Source: Ferroacidibacillus organovorans
GTDB lineage: Bacteria > Bacillota > Bacilli > Alicyclobacillales > SLC66
Direction of reading: 5' to 3'
DNA length: 51,304 nt
NCBI RefSeq assembly: GCF_001642725.1
Contig: NZ_LSUQ01000017.1
Location: 1 to 51,304, forward strand
Under the pieces are notes generated by a model that did no database searches, had not been told where the DNA came from, and saw nothing but the letters and a program-made list of their open reading frames with translations. A program made the translations under genes and the position numbers. Of the stretch, positions 1,915-41,667 are shown in pieces (within the stretch, counting starts at the first letter, position 1; each line of letters starts with the position of its first letter).

Positions 1915-1915
1915 A

Positions 1916-5321: not shown

Positions 5322-5446
5322 CGTTCTTCCTCCTTTGTTTCTTTCAATATGTATGCGTTTTCTCCATAGTACGCCAGGACTTGCGCAAGAACAATAGAGT
5401 TTGATTGAGTCGGGGTCGACTCGAATGGAAAGGGATAAATATTCCC

Positions 5447-6676: not shown

Positions 6677-6679
6677 CCC

Positions 6680-7300: not shown

Positions 7301-7404
7301 GGGAAACTTTCATTCCTTTTCTGTTGTGTTCGTCTCATGCGGAACATGTATAGTATAGGGCATCAGGCAAATGAGTAAAATCGTGCGAAATAGGCGGTGA
7401 ACCG

Positions 7405-7932: not shown

Positions 7933-7946
7933 TGCCAAGAAAACGG

Positions 7947-9125: not shown

Positions 9126-9170
9126 AAAAAAACCTCCTGTGGGGTTCGAGGTGTCACACCTCTGAAGTTG

Positions 9171-9247
9171 TGCCCAGGCGGTCGGCGTTATCGACGTTAC
9201 ACTCCATCGTGGTTACTCCACGTTACGTTCCGCCAGTCATGCAACGT
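9171..9247 (-). ncRNA. ZMP/ZTP (pfl) riboswitch upstream of purT
   Basis: Minus strand reads GACTGGCGGAA...GTGGAGTAACCAC..GGAG...GCCGACCGCCTGGGCA, the pfl consensus; purT is a typical target. Confidence 0.93.
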
Positions 9248-9374
9248 CCCGCCTAGTATACATGAAGAAATAAGATTTTTCTCATCAAAATATGGGGAAA
9301 CCTTCATCTCTCTCACCTCATGGGTTAAAGAACCTTGGCTACAATGAAATCATTCCGAAGGGGAGGGATTACAC

Positions 9375-9743
9375 ATGAAAAGATTCATCCTTGGTGGTGT
9401 TGCACTCGCGACGGCGGGTATGCTTTTGTCACAAGTATCCGCGTTTGCTGCAACGCAGAGCACGACGACTCCACCTGTCGCTCAAGTGACGAACCTGACA
9501 CTTCCAGCGTCCGTGTCGGCAGGCCCTGAGGCAAAGGACGGCGTTGACAATGGCCCGAATGTTCAAGGCCAAGTGGGGGGTCAACGCAATGACGGTGGGA
9601 TTGACAAACCCGGTGCTGAAAAGCATGGTGTCGAAAAAGGCATCGACCATGGTTTGAATCAAGGTCCGAACGTGCAGGATCAAGTGGGCAGTCAAACGAA
9701 GGATGGCGGCGTAGATGCGCATCCGGCGGGGCAAGGTAACTAA
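9375..9743 (+). CDS. small secreted Gly/Gln/Asp-rich hypothetical protein with an internal duplication
   Basis: GGAGG RBS, signal peptide ending AFA-A, two GPNVQxQVGxQxxDGGxD units. Confidence 0.75.
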   Translation: MKRFILGGVALATAGMLLSQVSAFAATQSTTTPPVAQVTNLTLPASVSAGPEAKDGVDNGPNVQGQVGGQRNDGGIDKPGAEKHGVEKGIDHGLNQGPNVQDQVGSQTKDGGVDAHPAGQGN

Positions 9744-9882
9744 CGCGTTCCTGCGCTCTGTCTGCCTACGGGTGGCTGAGTATACGCGTTGAACGGACCT
9801 GGAGTGATCGGCCAGCGAGAATGGACAAGTTCCATCATCGCTGGCCGTCTTCCTTTGCTATACTTGTATTGGGGTGAATAAA

Positions 9883-10563
9883 ATGAGCAAAGAGCGAGTA
9901 CTGCTCATCGAAGACGATGAAGAGATTGCCGGATTTGTCGAGTTAGAGCTGACGCATGAGGGATATCAGGTTACGGTGGCCAATGATGGTCGCGATGGGT
10001 TGCGCAAGGCGCTTGACGCGACGTGGGATCTACTGCTTTTGGATGTCATGCTCCCTGGAATGTCGGGTCTTGAAGTATGTCGCAGAATTCGTCTGGAGAG
10101 CACCGTACCGATCATCATGTTGACGGCCAAAGGCGGTATCTCTGACCGTGTGGCGGGGATCGACTATGGCGCGGACGACTATCTCATCAAACCGTTTGCG
10201 ATTGAAGAGCTGATGGCTAGAATGCGAGGGTTATTGAGGCGGGCGCACTACGCGCAGGATTCGCTTACCGTACTCTCCATTGGCGATTTGACGCTTCATC
10301 AGGAGACGCGGGATGTGAAGCGGGGCGACGTCGAAATCCGTCTGACGCCGCGCGAGTTTGACTTGCTGCGTCACCTGATTGAGAACAAAGGGCATGTGCT
10401 ATCGCGGGAAAATTTGCTGCATGCCGTGTGGGGCTATGATTTTTCCGGAGAAACGAATGTGGTTGACGTCTATGTTCGCTATTTGCGCGCAAAGGTCGAT
10501 GAAGGATTCTCCACGCCCCTGATTCACACGGTGCGCGGCGTCGGATATGTGATGAAAGAATGA
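9883..10563 (+). CDS. OmpR/PhoB-family response regulator
   Basis: LLIEDD, LLDVMLPG, GADDYLIKPF and HTVRGVGY motifs; alternative start 9874. Confidence 0.96.
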   Translation: MSKERVLLIEDDEEIAGFVELELTHEGYQVTVANDGRDGLRKALDATWDLLLLDVMLPGMSGLEVCRRIRLESTVPIIMLTAKGGISDRVAGIDYGADDYLIKPFAIEELMARMRGLLRRAHYAQDSLTVLSIGDLTLHQETRDVKRGDVEIRLTPREFDLLRHLIENKGHVLSRENLLHAVWGYDFSGETNVVDVYVRYLRAKVDEGFSTPLIHTVRGVGYVMKE

Positions 10564-11945
10564 GAACGCGCTTATCCATCAAATGGCGCGTCTCTCTGAT
10601 CTCAATCGGAACGATCGCGGGTATCACCGTTCTCTTTACACTGTTTATCTATTTTTCACTCTCTAAATGGATGATGGAACAACAGGATCACGCGGCACTG
10701 ACAAGCACTCAACATATCGCGCTCGCCTATCCTGGAAACATTGAGCAAGGCAGTAATAATTCCAATGATAAATCGCAATCTTGGCTTTCGCAGTTTGCCT
10801 CCAAAAACCAGACGTTCTATATCATCGGATTAAACGGGAAAACGGTCGCAACGCTCGGAAATGCATTCGGCGTGCTTCCGCACTCAATCGGGCTGACACA
10901 CGCACAAAAAGGAACACTCACGCATGTCGTCGAGCGCGGACATTCGTTTGTGCGAATCATCTTGCCCAGTCGCTCAGAGTCAGGCGATACTGTCGCCTGG
11001 GTGATTTCGTATGCGTCGACCGATGTTGTGCAGGCGTACATTACGGCACTGGTGCGTGTGTTAATCTTCGGATCGCTTCTTGCGCTGATTTTGGCTGGAC
11101 TGAGTGGTTATGTGATGAGTTTCGTTGCGCTGCGCCCAATTACCGACATCATCCGGCGGATGCATCATATGGATGCGTTTTCGATCAAAGGACGATTGCC
11201 CCACGATTCTGGTCGCGATGAGATTGCGGAATTAGCAAAGACGTTTAACGAAATGCTCGATCGAATTCGCAAGACGATCGAGAAGCAGAATGAGTTTATC
11301 GCAGACGCCTCCCATGAGTTTCGATCGCCGCTCACCGTCATTGAAGGGTATACGAATCTGCTCGATCGCTGGGGAAAGGATGATCCAGCCGTGACGGAAC
11401 GCTCCATTGGCGCGATCAAAAAAGAGGCTGCACGTTTGCGAAGATTGACGAATGGACTTCTGCAACTCGCATCACTTGCCAATGTGCAACTCGAAAGTAC
11501 ACCGTGTGACGCCAAACGTGTCGTGGAAGAGGTCGTCCTTCAATTTAGCGAGGTTTTTCAGCGAAACATTGCATTTGAATGTTCCGATGTATCGGTGATG
11601 ACAGAAATGCAATCCGAGCATCTCCATCAAGTGACTGCGATTCTTTTACAAAATGCGGTCAAGCACACCACAGAAGGCCAGGGAATTTCAGTGCGGGCGG
11701 TACGTCAGAAGAGCGGACTTCTTTTGGCTGTCGAGGATAAGGGCGAGGGGATTGACCCGGAGCATCTTCCCCACGTTTTTGATCGATTTTACCGCTCAGA
11801 CCGAGCGCGCAGTCGATCAACCGAAGGATTTGGGCTGGGACTTGCGATAGCCAAAGAGATCGTCGGTCTTTATCAAGGAACGATTCAAGTCGTGAGCGAA
11901 AGAGGGAAGGGAACGGTTTTTTCGGTAACAATTCCGGCTCGATAG
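10560..11945 (+). CDS. HAMP-domain sensor histidine kinase
   Basis: Two TM segments, HAMP, H-box DASHEFRSPL, N-box NAVKH, G-boxes DKGEG and GFGLGLAI; 4-bp overlap with the regulator. Confidence 0.96.
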   Translation: MRTRLSIKWRVSLISIGTIAGITVLFTLFIYFSLSKWMMEQQDHAALTSTQHIALAYPGNIEQGSNNSNDKSQSWLSQFASKNQTFYIIGLNGKTVATLGNAFGVLPHSIGLTHAQKGTLTHVVERGHSFVRIILPSRSESGDTVAWVISYASTDVVQAYITALVRVLIFGSLLALILAGLSGYVMSFVALRPITDIIRRMHHMDAFSIKGRLPHDSGRDEIAELAKTFNEMLDRIRKTIEKQNEFIADASHEFRSPLTVIEGYTNLLDRWGKDDPAVTERSIGAIKKEAARLRRLTNGLLQLASLANVQLESTPCDAKRVVEEVVLQFSEVFQRNIAFECSDVSVMTEMQSEHLHQVTAILLQNAVKHTTEGQGISVRAVRQKSGLLLAVEDKGEGIDPEHLPHVFDRFYRSDRARSRSTEGFGLGLAIAKEIVGLYQGTIQVVSERGKGTVFSVTIPAR

Positions 11946-11970
11946 GGCAGATTGCGACCGCCAAGAAATA

Positions 11971-12010
11971 TTCTCATCAAATTCTAATCTGTTTCTATCT
12001 ATATTCTAAT
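11971..12010 (+). promoter_or_regulatory. four direct repeats at 11-bp period, candidate OmpR-family operator
   Basis: TTCTCAT at 11971, TTCTAAT at 11982, TTCTATC at 11993, TTCTAAT at 12004. Confidence 0.65.
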
Positions 12011-12121
12011 ATTTTCGTCCCGCCGTTTTAATCATGAGCCAGTACACTGATGCTGCACAGGGTACGCCGTGTGCTTGATGACGTGGCTAGGCAAATGGGA
12101 TTACGCAAGGGGCAATGTTGG

Positions 12122-14137
12122 ATGTGCGGAATTGCTGCAATCGTACCAAAGATACACCCATTTCCACAGCAGGAAGAGATTTTGGTGGAAATGCTTGATA
12201 GCATGGTTCATCGCGGGCCGGATGGTCACGGGGTGATGCGAAAAGGACACCTCGCGTTGGGTATGGTTCGACTTGCGATCGTTGATCTTGAGCATGGCAT
12301 GCAACCGCTTTTTAATGAAGATCAGACACTTACCTTGGTTTGTAATGGAGAAATCTACAATGCGGATGACCTGCGGACATCCTTGATCAAATCCGGGCAT
12401 ACGTTTCAAACGTTTTCAGACACTGAAGTGATTTTACATTTATACGAAGAAAAAGGGAAAGAATGCCTTGCCGATCTTGAAGGCATTTTTGCATTTGCAC
12501 TATGGGATGAAAAAGAGCAAGAACTTTTTATTGCGCGGGATCGACTCGGCGTAAAACCACTCTACTATATGGATCAGGGGGCGTATTGGGCGATCGCGTC
12601 AGAAATGCGCGCGCTCCTTCCTTTGATCGATGAGGCGGTTCACCTTGATCGCGATGCGGTGACTGCGTATCATGCGTACCGCTTTACACCGCGCGAGCAG
12701 ACGATGGTCAAAGGGATTTATCGGCTACTCCCAGGTCACTATGCAGTCGCCTCGAAAGCGGGGATGGTGCACCATGCGTATTGGACCCCTGTGTTTGCGA
12801 CGCCAATCGTGAAGCGCAACCATGCGGATCAGGCCGTACACCTGCGCTCTCTGCTTTTTCACGCTGTAAAGAGTCAACATGCGGAGGAAGTCAAATCTGC
12901 CGTGCTTTTAAGCGGAGGGTTAGATTCGACAGCGATCCTCGCGATGCGACGCGAATTTCTGGGAAACCGCGAGGATTGTGCCATTACGGTTGCGTTTGAG
13001 CGACCGAAACGACACGCGGAGCGTGAAGAGTACACGGAAATGAGCGAGGCAGAACGTGTCGCGCTCCGTTTCGGTGCGCAACATCTCTCGCAAATCGTCA
13101 GTGCGGAAGAAGCGCTAGAAGCGTTTCCTCGTATTATCCAAGATCTTGATGAACCGATCGCTGATCCGACAGCCATTCCACTCTGGTTTGCGGCAAAGCT
13201 TGCGAACCGTCACGAAACGAAGGTTTTATACAGCGGTGAAGGCATGGATGAGTTGTTTGCGGGATATTCCATCTATGGTCACGAGAAGGTGTTGCGCCGT
13301 ATGCGCATGATCCCATCGCCCTTGCGGCGGGCGCTGCGAAACATACTTTTGCGGGCAGACTTGCCGGGTGCAGGTGTCCTGGAGCGGTCGCTAAGTGATG
13401 TGGAGACGTGGTATCAAGGCGTTGGCGGTGTGTTTACGCGCGCAGAGCGCATCGCGCTTCTGGGTGGAGACGAGAGCCGACGAGGTAAGTGTCCTTCTGC
13501 ATTTTACGGAGAATCGCTTGATAAAGCGAAACATAGTGCAAGTAGCGACCTGCAGCGCATGATGCTTCTTGATCTTGTGACGTGGCTGCCCGACAATACG
13601 CTTGCCAAATCGGATAAGATCACCATGGCACACTCTGTGGAGATGCGCGTGCCCTTTTTGAATCAAGAAGTGGTGGAGTATGCCCTCGCGTGTCCGGATC
13701 ACCTGAAGTGGAAACGGGAAGGGAAAGAGATTGTGCGCAGAGCGCTCGAAGGTGTTATACCGGAGGAGGTTCTTAGGCGCAAAAAGGTCGGATTTAACGT
13801 ACCCGTATCGGCGTGGATCTTTGGCGAGTGGAATTCCTATGCAAAAGCGATGCTTTTATCGGATGACGCCGTGACCCGAACGCTATACGAACATCGCGCG
13901 GCGCACCTTTTTGATGCAAAACCCAGTCAACAAGAGCGCGCTGGAAGGCTATTGTTTGCTATGCTGACCTTGGAGCTTTGGCTTAGGTACATGCCGATGC
14001 GAGCGGAAAAAAGGGGATTGTTTCATGAACGGGAAGTCGCGCATTATCCCACTGAAAGAAGGATTCCACGTGTGGACGCGGCAAGTGGGGGAAAGTCCGA
14101 TCAAGCTGTTGCTGCTTCACGGCGGGCCTGGGTTTAA
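12122..14137 (+). CDS. asnB: asparagine synthase (glutamine-hydrolysing) family amidotransferase
   Basis: Starts MCGI (Ntn Cys); HRGPD, NGEIYN, LSGGLDS, SGEGMDELFAGY and EMRVPF motifs. Confidence 0.9.
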   Translation: MCGIAAIVPKIHPFPQQEEILVEMLDSMVHRGPDGHGVMRKGHLALGMVRLAIVDLEHGMQPLFNEDQTLTLVCNGEIYNADDLRTSLIKSGHTFQTFSDTEVILHLYEEKGKECLADLEGIFAFALWDEKEQELFIARDRLGVKPLYYMDQGAYWAIASEMRALLPLIDEAVHLDRDAVTAYHAYRFTPREQTMVKGIYRLLPGHYAVASKAGMVHHAYWTPVFATPIVKRNHADQAVHLRSLLFHAVKSQHAEEVKSAVLLSGGLDSTAILAMRREFLGNREDCAITVAFERPKRHAEREEYTEMSEAERVALRFGAQHLSQIVSAEEALEAFPRIIQDLDEPIADPTAIPLWFAAKLANRHETKVLYSGEGMDELFAGYSIYGHEKVLRRMRMIPSPLRRALRNILLRADLPGAGVLERSLSDVETWYQGVGGVFTRAERIALLGGDESRRGKCPSAFYGESLDKAKHSASSDLQRMMLLDLVTWLPDNTLAKSDKITMAHSVEMRVPFLNQEVVEYALACPDHLKWKREGKEIVRRALEGVIPEEVLRRKKVGFNVPVSAWIFGEWNSYAKAMLLSDDAVTRTLYEHRAAHLFDAKPSQQERAGRLLFAMLTLELWLRYMPMRAEKRGLFHEREVAHYPTERRIPRVDAASGGKSDQAVAASRRAWV

Positions 14138-14921
14138 CCACGAATACTTAGAGTGTTTTGCGGACTTTTTACCGCCGGAAGGCGTAGAACTGTACTTCTA
14201 TGATCAATTGGGTTCCTATTTCTCAGATCAACCGGATGATTCCTCACTGTGGATTGACACGCGATTTCGAGAAGAGGTCGAACAGGTTCGCTCTTTTCTC
14301 GGCTTAGAATCATTTTATCTCTGCGGCCAATCGTGGGGTGGGTATCTCGCGATTGAGTATGCGCTCAAATACCCATCGCATCTCAAAGGCCTTGTCATCT
14401 CGAACATGACGGCGAGCATTCCCGCCTATGTCGCGTCGATTCAAGCGCTGCGCAATCAATTGCCGGAACCCATCGTTTCCCGCATGCTTGAATTTGAAGA
14501 ACGCGGCGATTTTGAAGCAGAAGCGTATCAAGAGCTTGTCATGGAACATCTCTACAAGAAGCACATTTGTCGTCTGGATCCGTGGCCGGAAGCGGTGCGG
14601 CGCGGGTTTGCCCATGCGAATATGCAGGTCTACAACACAATGCAGGGACCAAACGAGTTTCTCGTCACCGGAAACTTCAAGGATTGGGACCGTTTTGCAG
14701 ACCTAAAGGACATCCATACACCGACGCTTCTTCTCTCTGGTCGTCATGACACGATGGCGCCGTCTGACATTGAAGAGATGGGACGGCGCATCCCCGCGTC
14801 GCGCGTCGCCATTTGCGAAGCGGGGAGTCACCTCTCGATGTGGGATGATCAGGAAACGTACTTTGCGCATTTGCTCCAGTTCATCCGCGACGTTGAGGCG
14901 GATCGATTCAACCGCGATTGA
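14025..14921 (+). CDS. proline iminopeptidase / L-amino acid amidase family alpha/beta hydrolase
   Basis: LLHGGPG, YDQLGS, GQSWGG nucleophile motif, GRHD and GSH. Confidence 0.92.
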   Translation: MNGKSRIIPLKEGFHVWTRQVGESPIKLLLLHGGPGFNHEYLECFADFLPPEGVELYFYDQLGSYFSDQPDDSSLWIDTRFREEVEQVRSFLGLESFYLCGQSWGGYLAIEYALKYPSHLKGLVISNMTASIPAYVASIQALRNQLPEPIVSRMLEFEERGDFEAEAYQELVMEHLYKKHICRLDPWPEAVRRGFAHANMQVYNTMQGPNEFLVTGNFKDWDRFADLKDIHTPTLLLSGRHDTMAPSDIEEMGRRIPASRVAICEAGSHLSMWDDQETYFAHLLQFIRDVEADRFNRD

Positions 14922-16821
14922 CCCACGCTTGGCCGCCGTTTGTCGTGACAAAAAGCCCGTCGTAGGTGCTAAACGCGTAACCAAAGCGCGGTGTGAGGAA
15001 TTGCATCGCGCTCCACGTGATCCACTGATTGTGCGGGAACATGTACCGCTTCCACGTCTTTCCTCCATCGCTTGTCGACTGGTATCCTGTTTGCGCACTC
15101 AACATAAACGAACCGCTGTCAGGCGTCGGTCCGAGCGCGAGAAAATTCGCGTTTTGCGCGCGCGCGGCGACGGGAATCGCCGTTTTCGCGAGTCCTGCGG
15201 CGTCTGCCATGAGCGAAATCGGGTCGGTGGATGCTGCCAGGAGCCATGTCAGGCCGCCGTTTCGCGTCAACCACGCGTGATGGCCAAGCGCCCCCACAAT
15301 GTATCCGAATCTTCCCTGCATATCGATGCTCGATGCGCGACCGGATCCTCCTTTTAACGCAAAGGGGACGAATACCTTTCCGCCGTCTTGCGTCTTGTAG
15401 AGGTGCTGGTCTGAACCAATGATGTAACCGACGTTTGGCGATGGAAAGGCGACAATCTGAGCAGAGGATGGACCGCTATAGGGAAGTGGATTGTGCACGG
15501 GAAGCCGTCCGATAATGCTCCACGTCGCACCGCTATCGCGTGTCATCAGGACGTCGTTTGCAGCACCAGGGATTCCCACACCGTAGCCGAGTTTTGGTGT
15601 GACCATCTGCGCGCTAAGCACGGGGGATGGTTTTGGCGAGGGGTAGATGGCTTGCCAATGCAATCCGCCGTCGCGCGTACGCAGTACGGTTCCGCTTTGT
15701 TCCCCCTGAAGGAGGAGATATCCGATCTGTTGACTCGGGAACGCAGAGACGTTGCCGAAGCCCATGCCATTCGCTGCGGGAATGGGGGTTGACTTTGACC
15801 ACGTTTTTCCGCCATTCATCGTCTCGGTGACAGAGGTTGTCCCATAGCCGCACGCCGCACAACCTCCCACGAAGTACGCGCGGGTGGCGCTGATCGGAAA
15901 GATCTGTCCGCCGTGGCTCCCAGGCCCTTGCGGGATAGGTGTGGCACGGTGTGTCACCGGAATGCCGGGCGCGGGTCCGGCTCCGGCCGTTGACAATGCG
16001 AGAACGGGCTTGAATTGCTGGCCTACGAGGCGAAACACGGTGTAGGAGGACTGTGACATGCCGGCGCCGCCGTCTACCATGACCCACGCGCCGTTTTTAA
16101 CCAATTTTATCTGTGCGCCTTGGATCATCCCGGGGCCGGAGATGCGGTTGACGAGTTGAAACGAGCGTCCGCCGTTGTGTGTGACATAGAATGCACCTTC
16201 GCCGTACCCTGCCTGGTTGGATGATGTGATCTTAGGTTGTGTGAAGATGTATCCAAAACCATTTGCATCAATCGAAACAGCGAGCGCGGGTTCCGGCGTC
16301 TTGAGGGGGATCCACGTCTTCCCGCCATTGCTCGTGCGAAAGAGTGTTCCGCCTAGGTCTGGCTGCTGACGCGAGGGGGAGATCGCGTATCCGAGTGAGA
16401 GCGTGTCAAAGGTTACGCTGTTTGCGAGATTAAAAGGGAGAGGACGTGTCGTAAAAGAGTTGCCGCCGTTCGTTGAGATGGCGAGTTGTGCGCCAGATTG
16501 AGACTGTGAAACAGCGATGAGTGTATGCGAATTAAGCGGCGTGAGATCCGTCAAATTCAGCCCGTGCAACGGAATCACGCGGAAATGGTTGCCGCCATCC
16601 GTCGTGGCGTAAAGTTCACCCTGCGCGGCGAGCCAACCTGTCGACGGTGTTGCAAACGCGAGGTCTTGCAGTGGGTTAACCGCGGATTGGTGGATGGATA
16701 CAGGAATCACGTGCAGAATCGGGCGCATCGCAGCGAATGTGCAAGGCGTGAGCGCGGCTCCTGCGAGAAAAAACGATGCGATACCCGTTCGCGCGATCCA
16801 TTTGGGTGAGAAAGTTTTCAT
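14908..16821 (-). CDS. secreted BNR/Asp-box repeat beta-propeller protein
   Basis: Signal peptide and about ten T-x-D/N-G-G-x-T-W Asp-box motifs; AAGGAG RBS before ATG 16821. Confidence 0.85.
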   Translation of the reverse strand: MKTFSPKWIARTGIASFFLAGAALTPCTFAAMRPILHVIPVSIHQSAVNPLQDLAFATPSTGWLAAQGELYATTDGGNHFRVIPLHGLNLTDLTPLNSHTLIAVSQSQSGAQLAISTNGGNSFTTRPLPFNLANSVTFDTLSLGYAISPSRQQPDLGGTLFRTSNGGKTWIPLKTPEPALAVSIDANGFGYIFTQPKITSSNQAGYGEGAFYVTHNGGRSFQLVNRISGPGMIQGAQIKLVKNGAWVMVDGGAGMSQSSYTVFRLVGQQFKPVLALSTAGAGPAPGIPVTHRATPIPQGPGSHGGQIFPISATRAYFVGGCAACGYGTTSVTETMNGGKTWSKSTPIPAANGMGFGNVSAFPSQQIGYLLLQGEQSGTVLRTRDGGLHWQAIYPSPKPSPVLSAQMVTPKLGYGVGIPGAANDVLMTRDSGATWSIIGRLPVHNPLPYSGPSSAQIVAFPSPNVGYIIGSDQHLYKTQDGGKVFVPFALKGGSGRASSIDMQGRFGYIVGALGHHAWLTRNGGLTWLLAASTDPISLMADAAGLAKTAIPVAARAQNANFLALGPTPDSGSFMLSAQTGYQSTSDGGKTWKRYMFPHNQWITWSAMQFLTPRFGYAFSTYDGLFVTTNGGQAWVNRG

Positions 16822-16931
16822 AGCAAGGTACTCCTTCACAGTTCGTTACAAGACAGACGAAAAAAGGAGGGTTGGGGTTTCAAACTTCTTTGCGGTAAAC
16901 TATTCCATAGAAAAAGGATGGGGGAATTCAC

Positions 16932-17639
16932 GTGAGTATTCATCTTGCGGCAGCCAAAGAGGATATCGCAGATGTCGTTTTGCTACCTGGGGATCCACTG
17001 CGCGCCAAGTTTATCGCAGAAAACTTCCTTGAAAATGCGGTCTGTTACAACGAAGTGCGTGGGATGTACGGGTTTACAGGTACCTATCAAGGGAAGCGCG
17101 TTTCTGTGCAGGGGACGGGGATGGGAGTTCCGTCGATCTCCATCTATGTTCATGAATTGCTTGAATCGTATGGTGTGAAAACGCTCATTCGCGTTGGAAC
17201 GTGTGGAGCGCTTCGCAAGGATGTGAGATTGCGGGATGTCATTTTGGCGATGTCAGCATCAACCGATTCTGCCACAAATCGCATCCGCTTTCCAGAGGTG
17301 CAGTTTGCTCCGACGGCAGATTTTTCACTTATCATGAATGCGTATCTCGCGGCAAAGGAAGGCGTCATTGATGTGCGCGTCGGCCCTATTTTTACGACAG
17401 ATACGTTCTATAGTGAGGCGCAGAGCGTCGTTGATCACGTGGCAAGCTACGGCGCCCTCGCGGTGGAAATGGAGACATCTGCGCTCTATACGCTGGCAGC
17501 CAAGTTTGGCGCGCGTGCACTCTCTGTTTTGACGGTGAGCGATCACTTGGTCACAGGGGAGACGACGACGGCACAAGAGCGTCAGGAAACGTTTCGTGAC
17601 ATGATGCAAATTGCACTTGACGCGGCGATTCGTGAGTAG
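16932..17639 (+). CDS. deoD: purine-nucleoside phosphorylase
   Basis: [20 protein letters not shown] and VEME motifs. Confidence 0.97.
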
Positions 17640-17743
17640 CTGATGTGTAGAATGATTGTACAGAGCGTCCACTACGGCGAATGAGTCAAGGTCAAAAACC
17701 TTGCATGCCACAATGGACGCTCTGAGTATGGTTGTAAGGCGAA

Positions 17744-18058
17744 TTACCAACCAAACGGGGCAACGGCTGGATAGATTCCAGTGATCCCCCCATAAGGCAT
17801 GAAAATTCCTCCGGGGACAGGCGATGGAAAGAAGGCAAGCGAGACGTCAGATTGATCAGCATGCACATTCAATAGCTGTGCGGACAGCTGTTCCTCATCC
17901 GTGCCGGAACTGTGCGCGGCGTCTACGCGTGTGACATGGGAGAGGATCATGCCCCGTTCAAGGACATGGGTGACGAGCCCGTGATGGACACCGTAGACGG
18001 AGTGGCACTGAATCCACTTTTGGTGATGCATGCGGACGGTTTCCGCTGTGTAGACCAT
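17744..18058 (-). CDS. hypothetical protein, possibly spore-associated
   Basis: GGAGG RBS before ATG 18058; CATAnnnTA -10-like element upstream; Pro/Gly/aromatic C-terminus. Confidence 0.55.
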   Translation of the reverse strand: MVYTAETVRMHHQKWIQCHSVYGVHHGLVTHVLERGMILSHVTRVDAAHSSGTDEEQLSAQLLNVHADQSDVSLAFFPSPVPGGIFMPYGGITGIYPAVAPFGW

Positions 18059-34589: not shown

Positions 34590-34617
34590 CACGCAGATCC
34601 TTTGTCACGCATAGATT
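34590..34617 (+). promoter_or_regulatory. SigK/SigE-type promoter of sigK
   Basis: CACG-N16-CATAGATT; partial SpoIIID-like TTAGACACAA just upstream. Confidence 0.55.
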
Positions 34618-34648
34618 GCCCTGATTGCGTCGAATCAAGCAGGGGGTC

Positions 34649-34995
34649 ATGATCTTGTCATTGATTGCAACATGGCTTGGCTTCGCGTGTGTCGATTCTT
34701 GCACCGCTCTCGTTTCGTATGTGAAGAACCAAGCATTCCCACATCCGCTCGGTGAAGCGGAGGAGCGGGAATGCCTATTGCGTATTGGGCGGGGTGAAGA
34801 GGACGCATACCATAAATTGGTGGAACATAATTTGCGTCTGGTTGCATTTATCGCAAAGAAATTTCGCGATTCCGGAGTTGATGAGGATGATATGATCTCG
34901 CTCGGGACCATTGGATTGATCAAAGCGGTGAAAAGTTTTCGGCCGGATGCGGGTACGAAATTCGCAACGTACGCAGCGCGATGCATTGAAAATGA
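34649..34995 (+). CDS. sigK: 5' half of interrupted pro-SigK (spoIVCB equivalent); unexcised ORF runs to stop at 35011
   Basis: Pro-sequence then [30 protein letters not shown] and [16 protein letters not shown] 34655 is a better-spaced alternative start. Confidence 0.93.
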
Positions 34996-35125
34996 AAGTT
35001 TGATGTGTTAAGGTGTGCGGAAATCGATGGAAATGACGAATGATGATCTTCGCTCTCGAATTTAATTGATATATGTTACGAATTGATTACGTGATATATC
35101 TAGGGATATCTGTATAGAAACTTCA

Positions 35126-35180
35126 TTGACAAAGGTTATGAAACTCTCGTATGCTCCGTTTATGAAAAGGATTTCATAAA
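35126..35180 (+). promoter_or_regulatory. SigA promoter plus LacI-type operator of the cargo operon
   Basis: TTGACA-N18-TATGCT followed by inverted repeat TTTATGAAA-AGGA-TTTCATAAA (35159-35180). Confidence 0.7.
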
Positions 35181-35209
35181 TTTTCATTTTTGGTATTCGG
35201 GGGTGATTC

Positions 35210-36244
35210 GTCGCGAAAATTACGATTCGAATGGTCGCAGAGCATGCGGGTGTTTCCATTCCAACCGTGTCACGTGTACTGAATTCACCCGATCGCGTTC
35301 GCGAAGAAACCAAGCAAAAGGTTCTTGACGTGGTTCGCACACTTGGATTCTATCCGAATGAAAATGCCCGACGATTGAGAACGCACGAGGTTCAGGCGAT
35401 TGGCGTAATTGTTCCTCATATCCGTGATTTCTTTTTTAGCGAGATCTACAAAGGCATGTCGGAAGCGGCAGAAGCGGCAGGAGTACAGATCTTTCTCCAC
35501 GACGCGTTGCAGCGGCAGGAGCGGTTGTATGAAGGATTTCCACTTTTAAAAAGCAAAGGTTGTAGTGGTGTCATTCTTGTTAGCGCTTACGTGTCGCGCG
35601 ATTTTGAAACCTGGATGAGCAGAGCGGGAATTCCTGTGGTTCTTGCGCTTACCGAGAGTGAAACGGGAGCAATACCTGCGTTTAAGGTGGATGATGTTCA
35701 AGCGTCCTTTGACGCAGTGGCACACCTGATCACGAGGGGACATCGCAGGATCGGAATCATCTCGGGGCCGGATGAAGATCCGACAGCGGGGCGCAACCGG
35801 TTGCAAGGATACCAATCTGCACTGCGGCACTACAACATACCACTTGACCCGGCGTTGATCGCATACGGCGCATTCCGCTTTGAACACGGTTATGAGGGAA
35901 TGAGCCAGCTCCTTTTGAGGCAAGGAGACGAACCGCTCACCGCAGTGTACGCAGTGAGCGACGAGATGGCCGTGGGCGCCGCGCGCTGTCTTTATGATCG
36001 AGGGATACGCGTGCCAGAGGATGTCTCGGTTGTCGGCTTTGACAACATAAGGCTGGCGAGTCTCGTGACGCCAACCCTCACAACGGTAGCTCAGCCGTTT
36101 GAAGAGATAGGGTCTGAGGCAGTTGTGACACTGCTTGACATGATTCATCAAAACATCACAGAGCAACAAAAAGGAACGCGCTATCTGCCTCATCGAATTG
36201 TGACGCGCGAGTCAACGCGCTTTTATGCCTACGATTCATCGTAG
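35210..36244 (+). CDS. LacI-family transcriptional regulator
   Basis: (V)AKITIRMVAEHAGVSIPTVSRVLN HTH and VPEDVSVVGFDN. RBS points to GTC 35210; first ATG is 35231. Confidence 0.93.
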   Translation, partial: VAKITIRMVAEHAGVSIPTVSRVLNSPDRVREETKQKVLDVVRTLGFYPNENARRLRTHEVQAIGVIVPHIRDFFFSEIYKGMSEAAEAAGVQIFLHDALQRQERLYEGFPLLKSKGCSGVILVSAYVSRDFETWMSRAGIPVVLALTESETGAIPAFKVDDVQASFDAVAHLITRGHRRIGIISGPDEDPTAGRNRLQGYQSALRHYNIPLDPALIAYGAFRFEHGYEGMSQLLLRQGDEPLTAVYAVSDEMAVGAARCLYDRGIRVPEDVSVVGFDNIRLASLVTPTLTTVAQPFEEIGSEAVVTLLDMIHQNITEQQKGTRYLPHRIVTRESTRFYAYDSS

Positions 36245-36296
36245 GCAGCGGTGTGCGCACTGCAGAGACAAACCATAAAAGGGGGAACTTCGTTTT

Positions 36297-37595
36297 ATGA
36301 AAAAATCCATTAAGGCAGGCTTCGCAGTTTTGACCGCGAGCGCATTGTCGCTCTCAGGAATGGCGGTACAATCTTCATTTGCGGCTGTCAAACACGCTGC
36401 AGCACCTGTCACCATTGTTTGGTATGCAGGGACGATTTCTGGAAATGGACTACGCGCCGACGTGGTCAGCCACTTTGAAAAGCTCTATCCAAACATCAAA
36501 GTCAAAGTGGTCGCGGAGCCGACCAACACGGACACCACACGCGCGCAGCTTATCGCGCAGATCTCAGGCGGCGCGACACAGCCGGACGTCTATCTCGGCG
36601 ACGTGATCTGGCCAGGCCAGTTCGGTTCCATGCACCTTGCGCTTCCGCTGAACAAATACCTGCCGAAGTCATTCTTCAACCAATTCGCGCCAGGACTGGT
36701 TGCGGGCGCCTCCTACAAAGGCAATGTATACGGCTCGCCGTGGTTCCAGGACAGCGGCTTCCTGTACTATCGGAAAGACCTGCTCGCAAAATACCATCTG
36801 CCTGTTCCGAAAACATGGGAGAAGCTTCAACAAGAGGCAAGGTTCCTCTTGAATAAAAAAGCGGTCAAGTACGGATTTGTTTGGCAGGGTTCTTCCTATG
36901 AAGGGTTGACCTGTGACTGGATGGAATACCTGACGGATGCGGGCGGTCAAGTGTTCAACGCAAAAGGACAGCCGGTAATGGATTCACCCGCAGCCCTGCA
37001 CGCGCTCAATTTCATGCGTGGTCTGATCACGTCGGGCGTATCGCCAAAGGCAGTTACGACCTTTACAGAACCAAACACGATGAACCTGTTCAATGCGGGG
37101 CAAGCGGCGTTCCTTCGCAACTGGGATTACGCGTACACCAACTCGCAAACGAAAGGCCAGTCCAGCGTCATTGGCAAAGTGGGCGTGGCTCCGCTGCCGA
37201 CGTTTGCAGGACACGGCACAGCAGGCTACGCGACGATTGGTGGATGGGATAACTATATCAACCCGCACACCAAGCATCTCGCACAAGACTTGTTGTTCGT
37301 GAAATACCTGGCGAGTGTGCCAGGGGAGACGATTCTCGCGACAAAGGCTTCAGAGATCCCGACAAACAACGCCGTTCAGCACAACCCGGCAGTTCGCAGA
37401 CTCAACCCCGTGCTCTCGATCGTTGCAGAACAGCACCTGATCGCACGTCCGAGCCAGTCGCCTTCGTACGCAAAAGTGTCGCAAGCGATCTACACGAACA
37501 TCAATGCAGCGCTGTCCGGTCAAACGAGTACGGCGAACGCGTTGAAGCAGGCGAACAGCCAACTGGCATCCGCACAAAGTTCTTCGTCGCTGTAA
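36297..37595 (+). CDS. carbohydrate ABC transporter substrate-binding protein (CUT1; trehalose/maltose-like by inference)
   Basis: PDVY..DVIW, LYYRKDLL, YEGLTC and FLRNWDY motifs; signal peptide. Confidence 0.92.
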   Translation: MKKSIKAGFAVLTASALSLSGMAVQSSFAAVKHAAAPVTIVWYAGTISGNGLRADVVSHFEKLYPNIKVKVVAEPTNTDTTRAQLIAQISGGATQPDVYLGDVIWPGQFGSMHLALPLNKYLPKSFFNQFAPGLVAGASYKGNVYGSPWFQDSGFLYYRKDLLAKYHLPVPKTWEKLQQEARFLLNKKAVKYGFVWQGSSYEGLTCDWMEYLTDAGGQVFNAKGQPVMDSPAALHALNFMRGLITSGVSPKAVTTFTEPNTMNLFNAGQAAFLRNWDYAYTNSQTKGQSSVIGKVGVAPLPTFAGHGTAGYATIGGWDNYINPHTKHLAQDLLFVKYLASVPGETILATKASEIPTNNAVQHNPAVRRLNPVLSIVAEQHLIARPSQSPSYAKVSQAIYTNINAALSGQTSTANALKQANSQLASAQSSSSL

Positions 37596-37706
37596 GATTG
37601 GCGCTTGTGAGCGTCGGAGGCGTGTCGAAGGGTTGACCTCGCGGCGTGCTGAAAGACCGTGTTTGTGCACTCGACAAAATCGCACACAGTGTAGAGTAAA
37701 TGAAGC

Positions 37707-37735
37707 GAGGGGCAGAGGTTTTCGCTCTGCCCCTC
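37707..37735 (+). other. intercistronic stem-loop between the SBP and permease genes
   Basis: GAGGGGCAGAG-N7-CTCTGCCCCTC perfect 11-bp stem with no U tract, consistent with an mRNA-stabilising hairpin. Confidence 0.6.
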
Positions 37736-37779
37736 AAGCGTTTCGAGCAGAGCGGGAAAGTAGGTAAGGAGGCGTTTGT

Positions 37780-38682
37780 GTGCGGGTAAGTCGACTTGAA
37801 CGTAAGTATGCGCTCGCGGGTTACGCCATGTTGGCGCCAGCGCTCTTAGTGATCGCACTTGTGACGATTTTTCCCATCGGGTATTCGGTGTGGATGAGCC
37901 TTAACAACATCTCTTCGACGTATTCAGGGTTCCAGTTTTCCTTTGCGGGTCTAAGCAACTATATCACTGTGTTCCACGCGCCAATCTTCTGGCAATCCCT
38001 CCTATTTACGGTTATGTACGCGGCGGTTACGGTCGTTGTTGAGATGGTGCTCGGCCTTTTGGTCGCACTCGCGCTCAACCAACCGATTCGCGGGCGCGGC
38101 GTGGCGATCGCCGTCATGTTGGTGCCGTGGACGCTGATTACCGTTATCTCCGCACAGATGTGGGGCTATATCTACAATGGGATCTACGGTGTCTTAAATG
38201 CTGTACTCATGAGCCTTCATATCATCAATACGCAAGTGTTGTGGCTCGGCGCGCCAACGTCTGCCACGATTTCGATCATGATCGCAGATATCTGGAAGAC
38301 GACGCCGTTTGTCACGATGATCCTATTGGCAGGACTTCAGTTGATTCCGAGTGATCTCTACGAGTCTGCGAAGATTGACGGTGCAACAGGGTGGCGCAGT
38401 TTTTGGAATGTCACGTTCCCGCTACTTCGGCCAAGTCTTGGGCTCGCGGCACTTTTTCGCATCCTTCAAGCGTTCGGACTGTTCGATTTGCCGTTTGTTT
38501 TGACCAATGGCGGCCCGGGAACGAGTACAGAACCGATCGCAATGCTCGCCTATAAGGCGATCTTTAATGACGGGAATTTCGGAACAGGGACAGCCGTCGC
38601 GGTGTCCACGGTTGGAATCGTCATTCTGCTCGCGTTGCTTTCCTTAAAGGCGCTGCGCACACAGGTAGGTGAAATCGATTGA
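37780..38682 (+). CDS. carbohydrate ABC transporter permease (MalF-like)
   Basis: WKTTPF, EAA-like loop LYESAKIDGA and LTNGGP motifs. Confidence 0.94.
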   Translation: MRVSRLERKYALAGYAMLAPALLVIALVTIFPIGYSVWMSLNNISSTYSGFQFSFAGLSNYITVFHAPIFWQSLLFTVMYAAVTVVVEMVLGLLVALALNQPIRGRGVAIAVMLVPWTLITVISAQMWGYIYNGIYGVLNAVLMSLHIINTQVLWLGAPTSATISIMIADIWKTTPFVTMILLAGLQLIPSDLYESAKIDGATGWRSFWNVTFPLLRPSLGLAALFRILQAFGLFDLPFVLTNGGPGTSTEPIAMLAYKAIFNDGNFGTGTAVAVSTVGIVILLALLSLKALRTQVGEID

Positions 38683-39515
38683 GTAAATATTCCCAGCGAT
38701 TGCGCAAGTCAATCGGTTACGTTGTATTGGTCGCCATGCTTTTGATCATCATCGCGCCATTCTTTTGGATGGTGGATACCTCCTTTAAAACGAATCTGGA
38801 TATCGGAAATTTCCCGCCGAGCTTTCTGCCACATCCATTTACGTTCAGTCACTACACGAGGGCGTTTTCGAAATACGGCTTTGGTGTATATTTCAGAAAT
38901 AGCGTCGTCGTTTCCATCGTTGCCACATTCATTGTACTGGTCATCGCCTCTCTCGCCAGCTACGCGATTGCGCGACTGCCGATTCGCGGCAAGGCGCCAC
39001 TCATGGTGTTCTTGTTGGCGATCTCCACGTTTCCTGAAGTCGCTGTCATCTCACCACTTTTCCTCATCATGCAGAGAATTGGATGGCTAAACAGCTATCA
39101 ATCGCTGATTGTCCCCTACGTTGCATTTAACCTGCCTTTTGCAATATGGGTCATGCGCACGTATTTCGCCGGTATTCCCAAAGAACTAGACGAGGCGGCA
39201 CGCGTGGACGGAGCAGGTATCATGACGACCGTCTTTCGCGTGATTCTTCCCGTCGCAACACCAGGGCTCTTTACAGGTGGCGTCTTCACCTTCGTCGCCT
39301 GCTGGACAGAATTTCTGTTTGCGCTCGTCTTTAACAGCAGTCAGCAGTTTCGCACGATTCCTGTGGGTATCGCACTCTTTTCTGGACAATTCACCATCCC
39401 GTACGGCACTATCTTTGCTGGGTCTACCGTTGCGGTTCTTCCGATCGTGATTCTCGTTTTGATCTTCCAGAAATGGGTGGTGGCAGGACTTACGGCGGGC
39501 GCAGTCAAAGGATGA
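38679..39515 (+). CDS. carbohydrate ABC transporter permease (MalG-like)
   Basis: ELDEAARVDGA motif; C-terminal GLTAGAVKG. Confidence 0.95.
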   Translation: MSKYSQRLRKSIGYVVLVAMLLIIIAPFFWMVDTSFKTNLDIGNFPPSFLPHPFTFSHYTRAFSKYGFGVYFRNSVVVSIVATFIVLVIASLASYAIARLPIRGKAPLMVFLLAISTFPEVAVISPLFLIMQRIGWLNSYQSLIVPYVAFNLPFAIWVMRTYFAGIPKELDEAARVDGAGIMTTVFRVILPVATPGLFTGGVFTFVACWTEFLFALVFNSSQQFRTIPVGIALFSGQFTIPYGTIFAGSTVAVLPIVILVLIFQKWVVAGLTAGAVKG

Positions 39516-39550
39516 GAGACAGACCGTCGCGCACGGCAAACGGTCGTCAC

Positions 39551-41062
39551 TCACCAGGTATTTATCTCAAGCGCGCGGTTCACGGGATCAATGTAGATCT
39601 CCCGAGCGACCGCGCGAATGACCGCCTGTCGCACATCCTCTGGCACTTCACGCTGCGGTAGTGCCAGAAACTGCTCGATCCGTAGTGTGCCTTGAGATGG
39701 CACAGTATCCGCATTCCACTCGCTTCCCGCGTCGTGAGCTGACCGCTCCTCTTCAAGCGCCGCCAATTGTGCACGCAAGACGCACTTGCGTTCGCTCAGC
39801 TTTTTGGCGTGTGCGAGCCATTCACTTTCTTCACAGTCAGGATCCTCAAGAAAATGAATCAATCGCGCGTATGCGGCTTCTACCCGCCCCAATTCCGCGC
39901 AGAGTGTCTCGCGTAAAAGCGTGCACGCGTCTTCCTCGTTTTTCACGCGGTCTTCACGGATAGCGTAACTCCATTCCACAGGTTCCAACCACGCTTTTAT
40001 CGCCCACCACACCGCGTCATCGATGCGATCACAGCGCAAGGATAGGACACACCCAGATGTCTTTGCACCTTGTGTGTGTTTGCGATCGGTGTACGTGTAT
40101 ACGTGTTTTCCCCACTGCGTCGCACGGCATCCGGTCAGCGTATTTCCGCACAGCGCACAGCGCAACAGCCCGCTCAATAGATAACGGTGACGCGTCTGCG
40201 CCGTTCTACGACGTTTGGAGACGGATAGTTTGGATTGAGCGAGTTCAAAAATCTCTCGCGAAACAATGGCGGGAACATCAATTTTGATCCACTCTTCGAA
40301 CGGGCGTGTCTGTACGGTAAAGGGGGCATTTGGAGTTCGCGTGCGCCTGCCTTCTGCCTTCCAGCGATTTTGGTAGAATTCCCCGATATAGGTTTGGTTC
40401 ATCAAGATCTGGCGTACGACCTGGCGATGAAACAGCGGCGCGCCGCGCTTCGTCGGAATCCCGCGCTCATTTAAAAACCGCGCGATACCGTTGATCCCCT
40501 GCACTTCTCGGGTGGGCGATGTAAACAGAGAAAAAATGAGGCGTACGATGGCAGCCTCCCGTTCATCGACGAAAAACGCCGCGGTTGCGCGATCATAGCG
40601 ATACCCGTAGATGGAAAAATCGCGCAGCACACGACCCTGTTTCGCTTTTTCACGCCTCCCGCGCGCCATGCGTTCATTGATTTTCGCCTTTTCAAACTGA
40701 CTGATCGCGCCGCGCATCTGATAGAAGAGCTGTCCTTCCGGCGTATTCTGATATTCACCGCTTACAAAGCGCAGTGTCGCGCGCTTTTCCCACTCGTCGG
40801 AGAGCACCAATTGGTTCATCAATTTACGCGAGAGGCGATCAGGGTCTAGGCAGATCACCTCGTTGATCTCACCGTCGAGAATGGCCCGGCGCAGCGCAAA
40901 GAGCGCTGGTCGATCGAGGGTTTCTCCGGAGACGCCTTCATCTACATATTCGCGCACGGGTGAATTACCTGCGATCGCTCGACAACTCCTCAGTTGGTCG
41001 TTCAGGCTGAAGCCGTTTTTCGCTTGATCCTCGGTCGAGACGCGCGCGTAGATCGCAATCAA
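39551..41062 (-). CDS. large serine recombinase (SpoIVCA-like)
   Basis: YARVST catalytic Ser, DEGVSG, DRLSR, recombinase domain, LLSGLLRCALCG Zn ribbon, coiled coil; AAGGAG RBS before TTG. Confidence 0.95.
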   Translation of the reverse strand: MIAIYARVSTEDQAKNGFSLNDQLRSCRAIAGNSPVREYVDEGVSGETLDRPALFALRRAILDGEINEVICLDPDRLSRKLMNQLVLSDEWEKRATLRFVSGEYQNTPEGQLFYQMRGAISQFEKAKINERMARGRREKAKQGRVLRDFSIYGYRYDRATAAFFVDEREAAIVRLIFSLFTSPTREVQGINGIARFLNERGIPTKRGAPLFHRQVVRQILMNQTYIGEFYQNRWKAEGRRTRTPNAPFTVQTRPFEEWIKIDVPAIVSREIFELAQSKLSVSKRRRTAQTRHRYLLSGLLRCALCGNTLTGCRATQWGKHVYTYTDRKHTQGAKTSGCVLSLRCDRIDDAVWWAIKAWLEPVEWSYAIREDRVKNEEDACTLLRETLCAELGRVEAAYARLIHFLEDPDCEESEWLAHAKKLSERKCVLRAQLAALEEERSAHDAGSEWNADTVPSQGTLRIEQFLALPQREVPEDVRQAVIRAVAREIYIDPVNRALEINTW

Positions 41063-41162
41063 GATCGGTTCGCTCCTTTTCTTCCATATATGATGTGATG
41101 ATGCGGTACGCGTTTTCCCGCGCGCGGTCGGCGTGCGGGCCGTCGTGAAGTCGTAGTTTCAT
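40965..41162 (-). CDS. small ORF overlapping the recombinase start, candidate recombination directionality factor
   Basis: GAGAGGA RBS close to ATG 41162; first ORF after the putative promoter; 65 aa (MKLRLHDGPHADRARENAYRII...). Confidence 0.45.
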   Translation of the reverse strand: MKLRLHDGPHADRARENAYRIITSYMEEKERTDLDCDLRARLDRGSSEKRLQPERPTEELSSDRR

Positions 41163-41177
41163 TCCTCTCACCCGTAA

Positions 41178-41206
41178 AACGTACGCCGATTCTGGGCTGT
41201 CCTAGA
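41178..41206 (-). promoter_or_regulatory. SigE-like promoter with overlapping SpoIIID-like box driving the small ORF and recombinase
   Basis: Minus strand TCTAG-N16-CGTACGTT; TAGGACAGCC (41195-41204) fits WWRRACARNY. Confidence 0.55.
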
Positions 41207-41249
41207 CCTTGTGGAGATTTTTCCCGCAGTACCTAGGAAGTGAACGTGA

Positions 41250-41667
41250 GATTCTGATGCATCTACGCACGAGGAAAAAATCAAGCCGCGATGTGTCGAT
41301 GGATGAATCGATTGGAACGGATAAAGAGGGGAATGACCTGACACTGCGCGATGTGCTTGGGTCTGATCCGGATGAGCTTGAGCGATACGTGGGTGAGCGC
41401 ATCGAACAGGAACGCTTGCGAAGTTATTTGCATGTGCTTGACACGCGCGAGCAAAAGGTGATCTGTCTGCGTTACGGGCTGCTCGACGGTGTGGAGTGGA
41501 CGCAGAACCAAATCGCAGAACACCTGAATATCTCCCGTTCCTATGTTTCCCGCATTGAGGCGCGAGCTCTTACCAAACTCCAGCACGCGCTTCATCCGCG
41601 TCCAAAGTCTGCCCCGCGCAGTCACCTGCGCGTGATGCGTTCGTCACATCCTGGTCAATCGCGGTAG
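41250..41667 (+). CDS. sigK: 3' half of interrupted SigK (spoIIIC equivalent)
   Basis: ILMHLR..KK..DVS...IGTDKEGN and TQNQIAEHLNISRSYVSRIE region 4; in frame with the 5' half after excision. Confidence 0.93.

Follow-up and report, generated by a model that had tools for sequence, protein, structure and literature searches.

A small skin-type element in a second sigK paralog of Ferroacidibacillus organovorans

Is a sporulation sigma factor gene that lies in two pieces on the chromosome put together again when it is needed, or is it what an insertion has left of a gene? The question is raised by a stretch of 51,304 nucleotides of Ferroacidibacillus organovorans (assembly GCF_001642725.1, contig NZ_LSUQ01000017.1, positions 1 to 51,304; this whole stretch is referred to as the window), where the two halves of a SigK-like gene, here called sigK2, are separated by an intervening element that, as it would be excised, comprises 6,254 bp (34996-41249). 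An earlier interpretation of the locus from its letters only (the sequence-only reading) had described it as a sigK gene interrupted by a phage-free, skin-like element carrying a sugar importer. From the comparisons described here we consider it probable that the element is of the skin type, has the canonical skr-spoIVCA unit and would be excised at a GA dinucleotide during sporulation, rebuilding pro-SigK2.

The split gene, its junctions and its intact paralog

The 5' half (spoIVCB-like; 34649-34995, plus strand) encodes the pro-sequence and regions 1.2-2.4, and the 3' half (spoIIIC-like; 41250-41667, plus strand) encodes regions 3-4. The open reading frame (ORF) of the 5' half (34625-35011, plus strand) matches positions 9-115 of the SigK family TIGR02846 with 139.5 bits and contains the Pfam domain Sigma70_r2; its frame continues into the element, up to a stop codon at 35009-35011. 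The ORF of the 3' half (41209-41667, plus strand) matches positions 110-226 with 137.9 bits and contains Sigma70_r4. The sequence on the attL side (34985-34995) is ...ATT GAA AAT GA|aagttt, and on the attR side (41247-41262) it is ...aacgTGA|GATTCTGATGCAT. When 34649-34995 and 41250-41667 are joined in silico, a reading frame of 765 nt is obtained, which encodes 254 amino acids without internal stop codons, has the junction CIENEILMHLR and is 81% identical, with no gaps, to the intact orthologs of two relatives (G004 and G007). The split is not a product of chance, because the intact orthologs of nine relatives (G002, G004, G006, G007, G011, G012, G013, G016 and G017) read through the same, uninterrupted site. 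The coordinates of the split, the 6,254-bp deletion, the restoration of the frame by this precise deletion and the placement of the break at ENE|ILM of a SigK-type gene had all been described correctly in the sequence-only reading, and the intact relatives that it asked for are these nine. The insertion site of the Bacillus subtilis skin, which we take to be IENE|ILMH, is the same as that of the window.

The crossover site has been delineated by comparing six split genes, being the sigK2 genes of the window's genome (G000), its sister species G001, G003 and G005 and the sigK1 genes (see below) of G007 and G032. GA is the one dinucleotide that attL and attR have in common in all six. The last bases of attL are ...A(A/C)GA| in each of them (AATGA in five, AACGA in G032), and in attR the GA directly precedes the first host base, again in six of six. 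In the window these dinucleotides are located at 34994-34995 (attL) and 41248-41249 (attR). When the window is considered alone the identical core at both junctions is TGA, as had been noted; the existence of a shared core is therefore retained, and its extent is narrowed to GA by the six-gene comparison. The rejoined site is a dyad, GATGCAT-N7-GA-N7-ATGCATC, with the GA at its centre.

The split gene is not the only sigK of this genome. When the genome itself is searched with TIGR02846, an intact gene, sigK1, is found on another contig (G000:C81:3192-3854; L001 1483-2187, on the minus strand of L001), encoding 234 amino acids and scoring 339.3 bits, above the equivalog cut-off of 298.65 bits. 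It lies in the order mltG-sigK1-yqeG-yqeH. The order around sigK2 is rsmI-abrB-sigK2-metG, as it is around the uninterrupted gene of the nine relatives, and within the family of the window's genome sigK2 is found between abrB and metG. The possibility that contig C81 represents the rejoined form of the window locus has been rejected, as the DNA is only about 65% identical and the context is different. The best-scoring family for the split gene is SigK, above SigE; the scores of its halves sum to about 277 bits and the intact sigK2 orthologs of the family score 282-298.7 bits, at or below the cut-off, which is reached only by the ortholog of G004. The split gene misses this cut-off and is therefore a SigK-like paralog rather than the equivalog.

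The distribution of the two genes is in agreement with this. A match above the SigK cut-off is present in 39 of 41 genomes of the same order, most of which have a second, lower-scoring SigK-like gene besides sigE. In a maximum-likelihood tree of 46 rows, whose root is uncertain since the SigE outgroup is on a long branch, the 13 sigK2 genes form one clade (100/99), which has the second copies of the neighbouring family as its sister group (99/92). Among 201 sampled genomes of the class, searched at E <= 1e-82, two matches are found only in four genomes, all of this order (G021, G027, G028 and G030), and the genomes outside the order that have a match have one each. The window's split gene is sigK2, a second paralog specific to its lineage, and not the sole sigK. 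A description of two sporulation sigK paralogs has not been found in a literature search, nor in the accessible parts of the two most pertinent papers (bioRxiv 10.1101/2022.02.25.481979; PMC13141910).

The pro-sequences of SigK1 and SigK2 both end in ...LVSYVKNQ, and the helices of regions 2.4 and 4.2 are nearly identical in the two proteins (ARCIENEILMHLR; ISRSYVSRIE), such that, judging from these helices, SigK1 and SigK2 probably read the same promoters. When the upstream regions of all 13 sigK2 genes of the family are compared, an AC, followed after about 17 nt by CATA(c/g)nnTG, is aligned about 35 nt before the start codon; in the window this promoter-like motif, AC-N17-CATAGATT, is located at 34591-34617 (plus strand), and at the equivalent place upstream of sigK1 the sequence is CATAGAATG. 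The motif resembles what we take to be the sigmaE/sigmaK consensus of B. subtilis, and it is a candidate mother-cell promoter.

The recombinase and its overlapping small reading frame

The recombinase gene (39551-41062, minus strand) adjoins the 3' half, as had been pointed out, and encodes a large serine recombinase of the SpoIVCA family (503 amino acids; Pfam Resolvase, Recombinase and Zn_ribbon_recom), in which the nucleophile Ser9, Arg7 and the zinc-ribbon cysteines Cys302, Cys305 and Cys338 are invariant in a 27-row alignment of homologs. With the alignment of the recombinases of G000, G001, G003 and G005 as the query, 79 homologous loci have been found in public genomes, belonging to many genera of Bacillota and having 38-62% identity, and in 63 of the 79 a sigK half is present within the locus. 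Among phage proteins, the integrase of Alicyclobacillus phage MMB025 comes nearest, with 42.8% identity across 98% of the length. Between the two species of the genus the window's recombinase is 77% identical; with the others in that comparison it shares 46-57% identity, and it belongs to a lineage separate from the element family of G003, G007 and G032. Elsewhere in the genome there are 16 further matches to large serine recombinases (on contigs C22, C40, C41, C43, C46 and others), with five on contig C22 alone (1878-17868); this total is unusually high for a 3-Mb genome.

Upstream of the recombinase gene, and overlapping it by 98 nt in a different frame, is a small ORF of 65 codons (40965-41162, minus strand), which starts 100 nt before the recombinase start. 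The sequence-only reading had recorded one small ORF in the insert; the ORF is indeed present, and by its layout and conservation it is Skr-like. In B. subtilis, the directionality factor of skin is encoded by skr, a 64-codon ORF directly upstream of spoIVCA, with its 3' end overlapping by 101 nt (PMC6957869, as far as its accessible part goes), so that the two systems are alike in recombinase family, in the overlapping small ORF and in having a host gene with a pro-sequence. When the recombinase loci are scanned for this layout, such an ORF is found in 64 of 84, or in 60 of 80 distinct places when four duplicated places are counted once; these ORFs start 85-112 nt upstream, overlap the recombinase gene by 62-125 nt and are always in the same relative frame. 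The count of 60 includes the ORF of L127, which lacks the motif described below and is probably a chance occurrence. Among the 20 loci without the ORF, 15 have the weakest or partial recombinase matches (L111 and L113-L126), and the other five (L077, L080, L081, L082 and L084) have a full-length recombinase of about 45-52% identity.

The part of the ORF that lies upstream of the recombinase start encodes a conserved motif, MxV(K/R)xIxGxSxD..R..CY.YL..KYRRE. With respect to G001, the pattern of substitution is that of coding DNA in the ORF's own frame only, with a pN/pS of 0.35 in this frame, against about 0.8 and about 1.3 in the two others. Searches of Pfam with 27 members give only chance-level matches, and there is no PHROGs family for the ORF. 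In a model of the complex of the recombinase and the ORF product, calculated with 27-row alignments for each, the score is 0.63, compared with 0.01 for the best of three controls; the mark used is attained in 116 of 157 solved complexes as well as in 2 of 215 mismatched pairs, counts that apply only approximately with custom alignments. The runs share at least 86% of their contacts, and the predicted local distance difference test (pLDDT) value of the partner is at least 66. The predicted interface is formed between residues 1-27 of the ORF product, which is the non-overlapping part, and residues 350-369 and 458-503 of the recombinase, together with 181-185 and 270-277. The model supports that the Skr-like protein would bind the recombinase; we know of no solved structure of a SpoIVCA-Skr complex. 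The small ORF is the key part of the element, which the sequence-only reading had not recognised, and it is a candidate recombination directionality factor that would promote excision.

Between the Skr-like ORF and the attR junction lies a conserved non-coding stretch (41163-41247, minus strand), which would comprise an attP-type arm and the presumed promoter of the skr-recombinase unit. Upstream of the skr-like ATG, 86 of 98 positions (88%) are identical between G000 and G001, species in which about half of the synonymous sites differ.

The cargo, selection and inheritance

The remainder of the element consists of a sugar-importer operon, all on the plus strand, encoding a LacI-family repressor (35231-36244; Pfam LacI, Peripla_BP_3 and Peripla_BP_1), a sugar-binding protein of an ATP-binding cassette (ABC) importer (36297-37595; SBP_bac_1) and two permeases (37780-38682 and 38679-39515; both BPD_transp_1). 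These Pfam assignments confirm the gene content previously listed for the insert. The solved chains closest to the binding protein are MalE3 (6dtq, E 1.9e-70) and a trehalose/maltose-binding protein (1eu8). The binding protein and both CUT1-type permeases are present and no ATPase gene is found among the ORFs of the element; importers of the CUT1 type commonly rely on a shared ATPase whose gene is located elsewhere. Upstream of the operon there is a sigma-70-type promoter, TTGACA-18-TATGCT (35126-35155, plus strand; 10 of 12 consensus matches, unchanged in G001), followed by a palindrome, ATGAAA-AGGA-TTTCAT (35162-35177, plus strand), which is unique in the window, where none is expected by chance, and identical in G001. 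The palindrome is a putative LacI-family operator, and together the promoter and the palindrome would form the picture expected for a repressor-controlled vegetative operon.

Two further features of the operon are described here. Just upstream of the annotated lacI ATG, the in-frame codons at 35204-35230 read F-V-A-K-I-T-I-R, like the usual N terminus of the LacI family, and contain no ATG, GTG or TTG, as is also the case in G001; the true start of lacI may be a non-canonical codon, ATT for example. A strong 12-bp stem-loop (37706-37736), placed on the minus strand by the terminator scan, lies between the genes of the binding protein and permease 1 and may determine how much permease transcript is made relative to binding-protein transcript.

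A chromosomal operon that is characteristic of the family is paralogous to the cargo operon. The copy of the binding-protein and permease genes in the same genome (G000:C4:16086-19275, L156) is 65-77% identical, and the copy closest to the operon of the element is that of G018 (82-88%). The idea that the cargo was captured from neighbouring DNA has been dropped, since no evidence for it was found, though the chromosomal copy of G011 is located about 5 kb from sigK2. The GC content of the element is that of its flanks. In agreement with the phage-free nature ascribed to it, there are no phage structural, lysis or replication genes among its ORFs, which all belong to the LacI, ABC-importer or recombinase families when classified with Pfam and NCBIfam; in PHROGs, searched with the recombinase and the small ORF only, the sole match is "integrase", for the recombinase. 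Transfer, replication and packaging genes are likewise not found in the element.

Selection has been assessed by comparing the window's genome with that of G001, where the same element occupies the same site, using the ratio of nonsynonymous to synonymous substitution rates (dN/dS) of Nei and Gojobori. The 5' and 3' halves of sigK2 have dN/dS values of 0.014 (dS 0.50) and 0.026 (dS 1.46), respectively. For the cargo the values are 0.024 (dS 0.93) for lacI, 0.021 (dS 0.79) for the binding protein, 0.012 (dS 0.90) for permease 1 and 0.019 (dS 1.21) for permease 2, and for the recombinase the value is 0.161 (dS 0.88). The flanking genes rsmI, abrB and metG have values of 0.101 (dS 1.02), 0.034 (dS 0.69) and 0.059 (dS 0.94). 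These values show purifying selection on the two sigK2 halves, on the cargo and on the recombinase. The element is older than the divergence of the two species and has been inherited vertically, because it occupies the same site in G001 and the dS values of its genes (0.79-1.21) are similar to those of the flanks (0.69-1.02). As the halves are selected as protein, they must be put together again, the alternative of separately functioning halves, discussed below, being rated unlikely.

These observations lead to the following proposal. In growing cells, the element would stay integrated, with expression of the importer in the presence of its sugar. In sporulating cells, the Skr-like protein would switch the recombinase to excision, with cutting and rejoining at the GA of attL and attR, on which the element would leave as a 6,254-bp circle and the 254-residue pro-SigK2 would be restored. 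Excision would take place only in the terminal mother cell, such that the spore keeps the element. This restriction to the mother cell is suggested by the behaviour of the family in B. subtilis, by the promoter motif of sigK2 and by the logic of inheritance: an element in a gene whose frame is essential can be heritable only if the rejoining occurs in a cell without descendants, which is the mother cell.

Known elements, relatives and rival explanations

As far as the accessible part of the text goes, the skin elements catalogued by Galperin and co-workers in 15 species range from 2.6 to 48 kb, encode 2-67 proteins and have only the recombinase in common, and spoIVCA is always at the element's edge, usually directly upstream of spoIIIC (bioRxiv 10.1101/2022.02.25.481979). 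The element of the window matches the small members of this catalogue in its size range and in its edge recombinase beside the 3' half. The architecture, which the sequence-only reading was not aware of having been described, had therefore already been described there and is the usual one, and small elements with non-phage cargo are common among the loci compared here; a case of a second sigK paralog or a conserved skr-like ORF is not mentioned in the part of the catalogue that is accessible. When compared with the B. subtilis skin (48 kb), the element of the window is smaller (6.25 kb), has no phage genes and carries a sugar importer as cargo, its recombinase is at the edge of the 3' half and antiparallel to the sigma factor gene, and its host gene is a second paralog in a genome that also has an intact sigK1; here, moreover, the system is known from its sequence only.

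Two other systems are pertinent, each as described in the accessible part of its report. The gin element of Bacillus cereus is a non-phage element in gerE, a late mother-cell gene, and is excised by the serine recombinase GirC and the small directionality factor GirX (PMC5595907); it differs from the element of the window in its target gene and in having no metabolic cargo. The Alicyclobacillus phage MMB025 is an infectious phage of 105 kb that is integrated within sigK, with TCTC as the proposed recombination site (PMC13141910). Its integrase being the closest phage relative of the window's recombinase, it comes from a related host lineage and is likewise found in a sigK gene; a second copy of sigK is not mentioned in the accessible text, where "paralog" and "second copy" have no occurrences. 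In the literature search, descriptions of the sigK duplication in this order, of elements in either paralog and of the breadth of the Skr-type ORF were not found, and "skr" and "spoIVCA" are mentioned together in just two papers. The element of the window is an ordinary case of a known developmental DNA rearrangement, with an unusual host gene.

Among the homologous loci there are other small sigK-intervening elements, 2.7-9.3 kb in size, whose recombinase is homologous and whose cargo is not of phage type, being a complete Opp-type ABC importer in L106, a GH65 phosphorylase with a HAD phosphatase in L118, SNF symporters in L123, capsule-type enzymes in L061, ATP-grasp enzymes with NlpC/P60 in L063, a polysaccharide deacetylase in L070 and an IclR regulator in L054. 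The cargo of the G005 element is a DUF347 membrane protein, and that of the G003 element is an SDR protein with a glyoxalase. A LacI/CUT1-type operon with more than 40% identity to that of the window is found in none of the 79 loci. One family of elements, whose recombinases are 96-97% identical, is present in sigK2 of G003 (L042) and in sigK1 of G007 (L129) and G032 (L134). The element-side arms of its members are near-identical and form a clear inverted repeat around the GA. Its hosts come from different genera and families, and in the congeners G011 and G014 the genes are intact. These sequence comparisons indicate that this family has spread horizontally and recently, and that either sigK paralog could serve as a landing site. 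The sigK1 gene of the window's genome carries an almost identical, empty attB site.

Further arrangements have been observed in the order. In G005 (L043 and L044), the element in sigK2 is very small (about 3.5 kb), with the two contigs overlapping through the gene of the DUF347 membrane protein. Its Skr-like ORF and recombinase gene directly follow the 5' half in the same direction and could be read from the sigK2 promoter, and two further small ORFs (87 and 68 amino acids) adjoin the 3' half, the shorter having a weak repressor-like PHROG match. In the neighbouring family (L136 and L137 of G033, L139 of G035, L141 and L142 of G038) the second SigK paralog is split elsewhere, at about profile position 140-149, with distant recombinases (24-27% identical) and with inserts that measure about 4.3 kb (G035) and about 30 kb (G038). 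In L145 (G026:C1:997700-1001200), as in eight other genomes of group g10, there is a third SigK-like ORF that is short at its N-terminal end (about 196 amino acids; profile positions 65-225); ORFs of this type lie about 1 kb from a match to the N-terminal part of a recombinase and may be the remnant of an old insertion without its 5' half.

Several observations weigh against the proposal that sigK2 is rebuilt by excision. The scores of sigK2 are at or below the SigK cut-off. In view of the intact sigK1, sporulation may not depend on the rearrangement of sigK2; because an intact, higher-scoring sigK1 exists, the late block of sporulation that the sequence-only reading had predicted for a knockout of the recombinase is doubtful. 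The 18 nt of the element beside attL (34996-35013) are identical at only 10 of 18 positions between G000 and G001, compared with about 90% in the surrounding non-coding DNA, and two of the few variants within the species population, 35007 G>C and 35010 A>G, fall in this arm. Such divergence is odd for a recombinase half-site, unless the arm co-evolves with the faster-evolving recombinase, for which the amino acid identity is 77%. The Skr-like ORF has a poor ribosome-binding context, and its likeness to Skr is based on the published layout rather than on a direct sequence comparison with the B. subtilis protein. Upstream of the skr-recombinase unit no promoter match is obtained in the sigma-70 scan, and neither of two motifs searched for in the window occurs there, CATANNNTA having 8 matches in the window (6.9 expected), of which the only one near the split gene and its element is inside the 5' half (34806-34814), and CATACANT having 1 (3.7 expected). 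Finally, the assembled contigs of the data sets X1, X4, X5 and X7 contain neither the join of 34995 to 41250 nor the junction of a circle, contigs being uninformative on excision as they drop rare variants.

Of the other explanations, that of an active integrative mobile element survives best, and it is nevertheless unlikely. According to this explanation, the element excises and reintegrates during growth or under stress, without developmental control, and sigK is merely a safe attB site. This would be in agreement with the relationship of the recombinase to integrases of functional temperate phages, with the recent movement of the related family into sigK2 of G003 and sigK1 of G007 and G032, and with the near-identical empty attB in sigK1 of the genome itself. 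However, the window's element has no genes for transfer, replication or packaging, both species of the genus carry it at the same position, its dS values being equal to those of the flanks, and contigs of three independent metagenome studies (X4, X5 and X7) bridge attL and attR in the integrated form.

Still less probable is a dead insertion, where the element would have inactivated sigK2, leaving two pseudogene fragments in a cell that sporulates with sigK1 alone. The intact sigK1, the assembled contigs without a rejoined form and the diverged inner arm of attL would fit such a history, and the sequence-only reading had indeed held that an intact sigK elsewhere, together with the lack of a rejoined form, would make the locus a pseudogene. 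The intact gene is present, but the conclusion does not follow from it: both halves are open in G000, G001, G003 and G005, their dN/dS values of 0.014 and 0.026, at a dS of about 0.5-1.5, are at or below those of the neighbouring housekeeping genes, and the recombinase and its overlapping ORF are conserved as well. Least credible of all is a split sigma factor, whose halves would be made separately and assemble on RNA polymerase without DNA rearrangement, as this explanation, while compatible with the purifying selection on both halves and with the in-frame ATG at or beside the junction of the 3' half in G003 (MLMH) and G005 (MEMLMH), is opposed by the lack of an evident promoter or ribosome-binding site in front of the 3' half, where the antisense leader of the recombinase lies, and by the position of the break inside the conserved helix of region 2.4, and leaves the conserved recombinase, its partner and the exact in-frame att sites unexplained.

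With excision during sporulation as the preferred reading, a wider picture can be sketched, which is plausible enough to be stated but for which we would not claim even odds. In this sketch a late mother-cell sigma factor has been duplicated, and one family of recombinase elements can land in either copy. In the window's genus, SigK2 would have been gated by excision since before the split of the two species and SigK1 would be ungated, giving a two-step supply of SigK, with SigK1 made first and SigK2 following only after the action of the recombinase and the Skr-like protein. A vegetative disaccharide importer, being lost from the mother cell, would thereby be tied to the germ line, and the Skr-type factor, for which there are so far reports from B. 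subtilis only, would generally accompany the SpoIVCA family as an unannotated partner.

Taken alone, the window adds one more small skin-type element to a catalogued class. Its overlapping Skr-type ORF, widespread beside SpoIVCA-type recombinases and absent from Pfam and PHROGs, could be useful to annotators and to users of serine integrases. Beyond analogy, the locus provides evolutionary evidence that a split sporulation gene has been kept functional over a long divergence despite an intact paralog, and an order of bacteria with two SigK genes, either of which can be the target of an element, is a natural system for asking what gating by DNA rearrangement adds to the control of a sigma factor.

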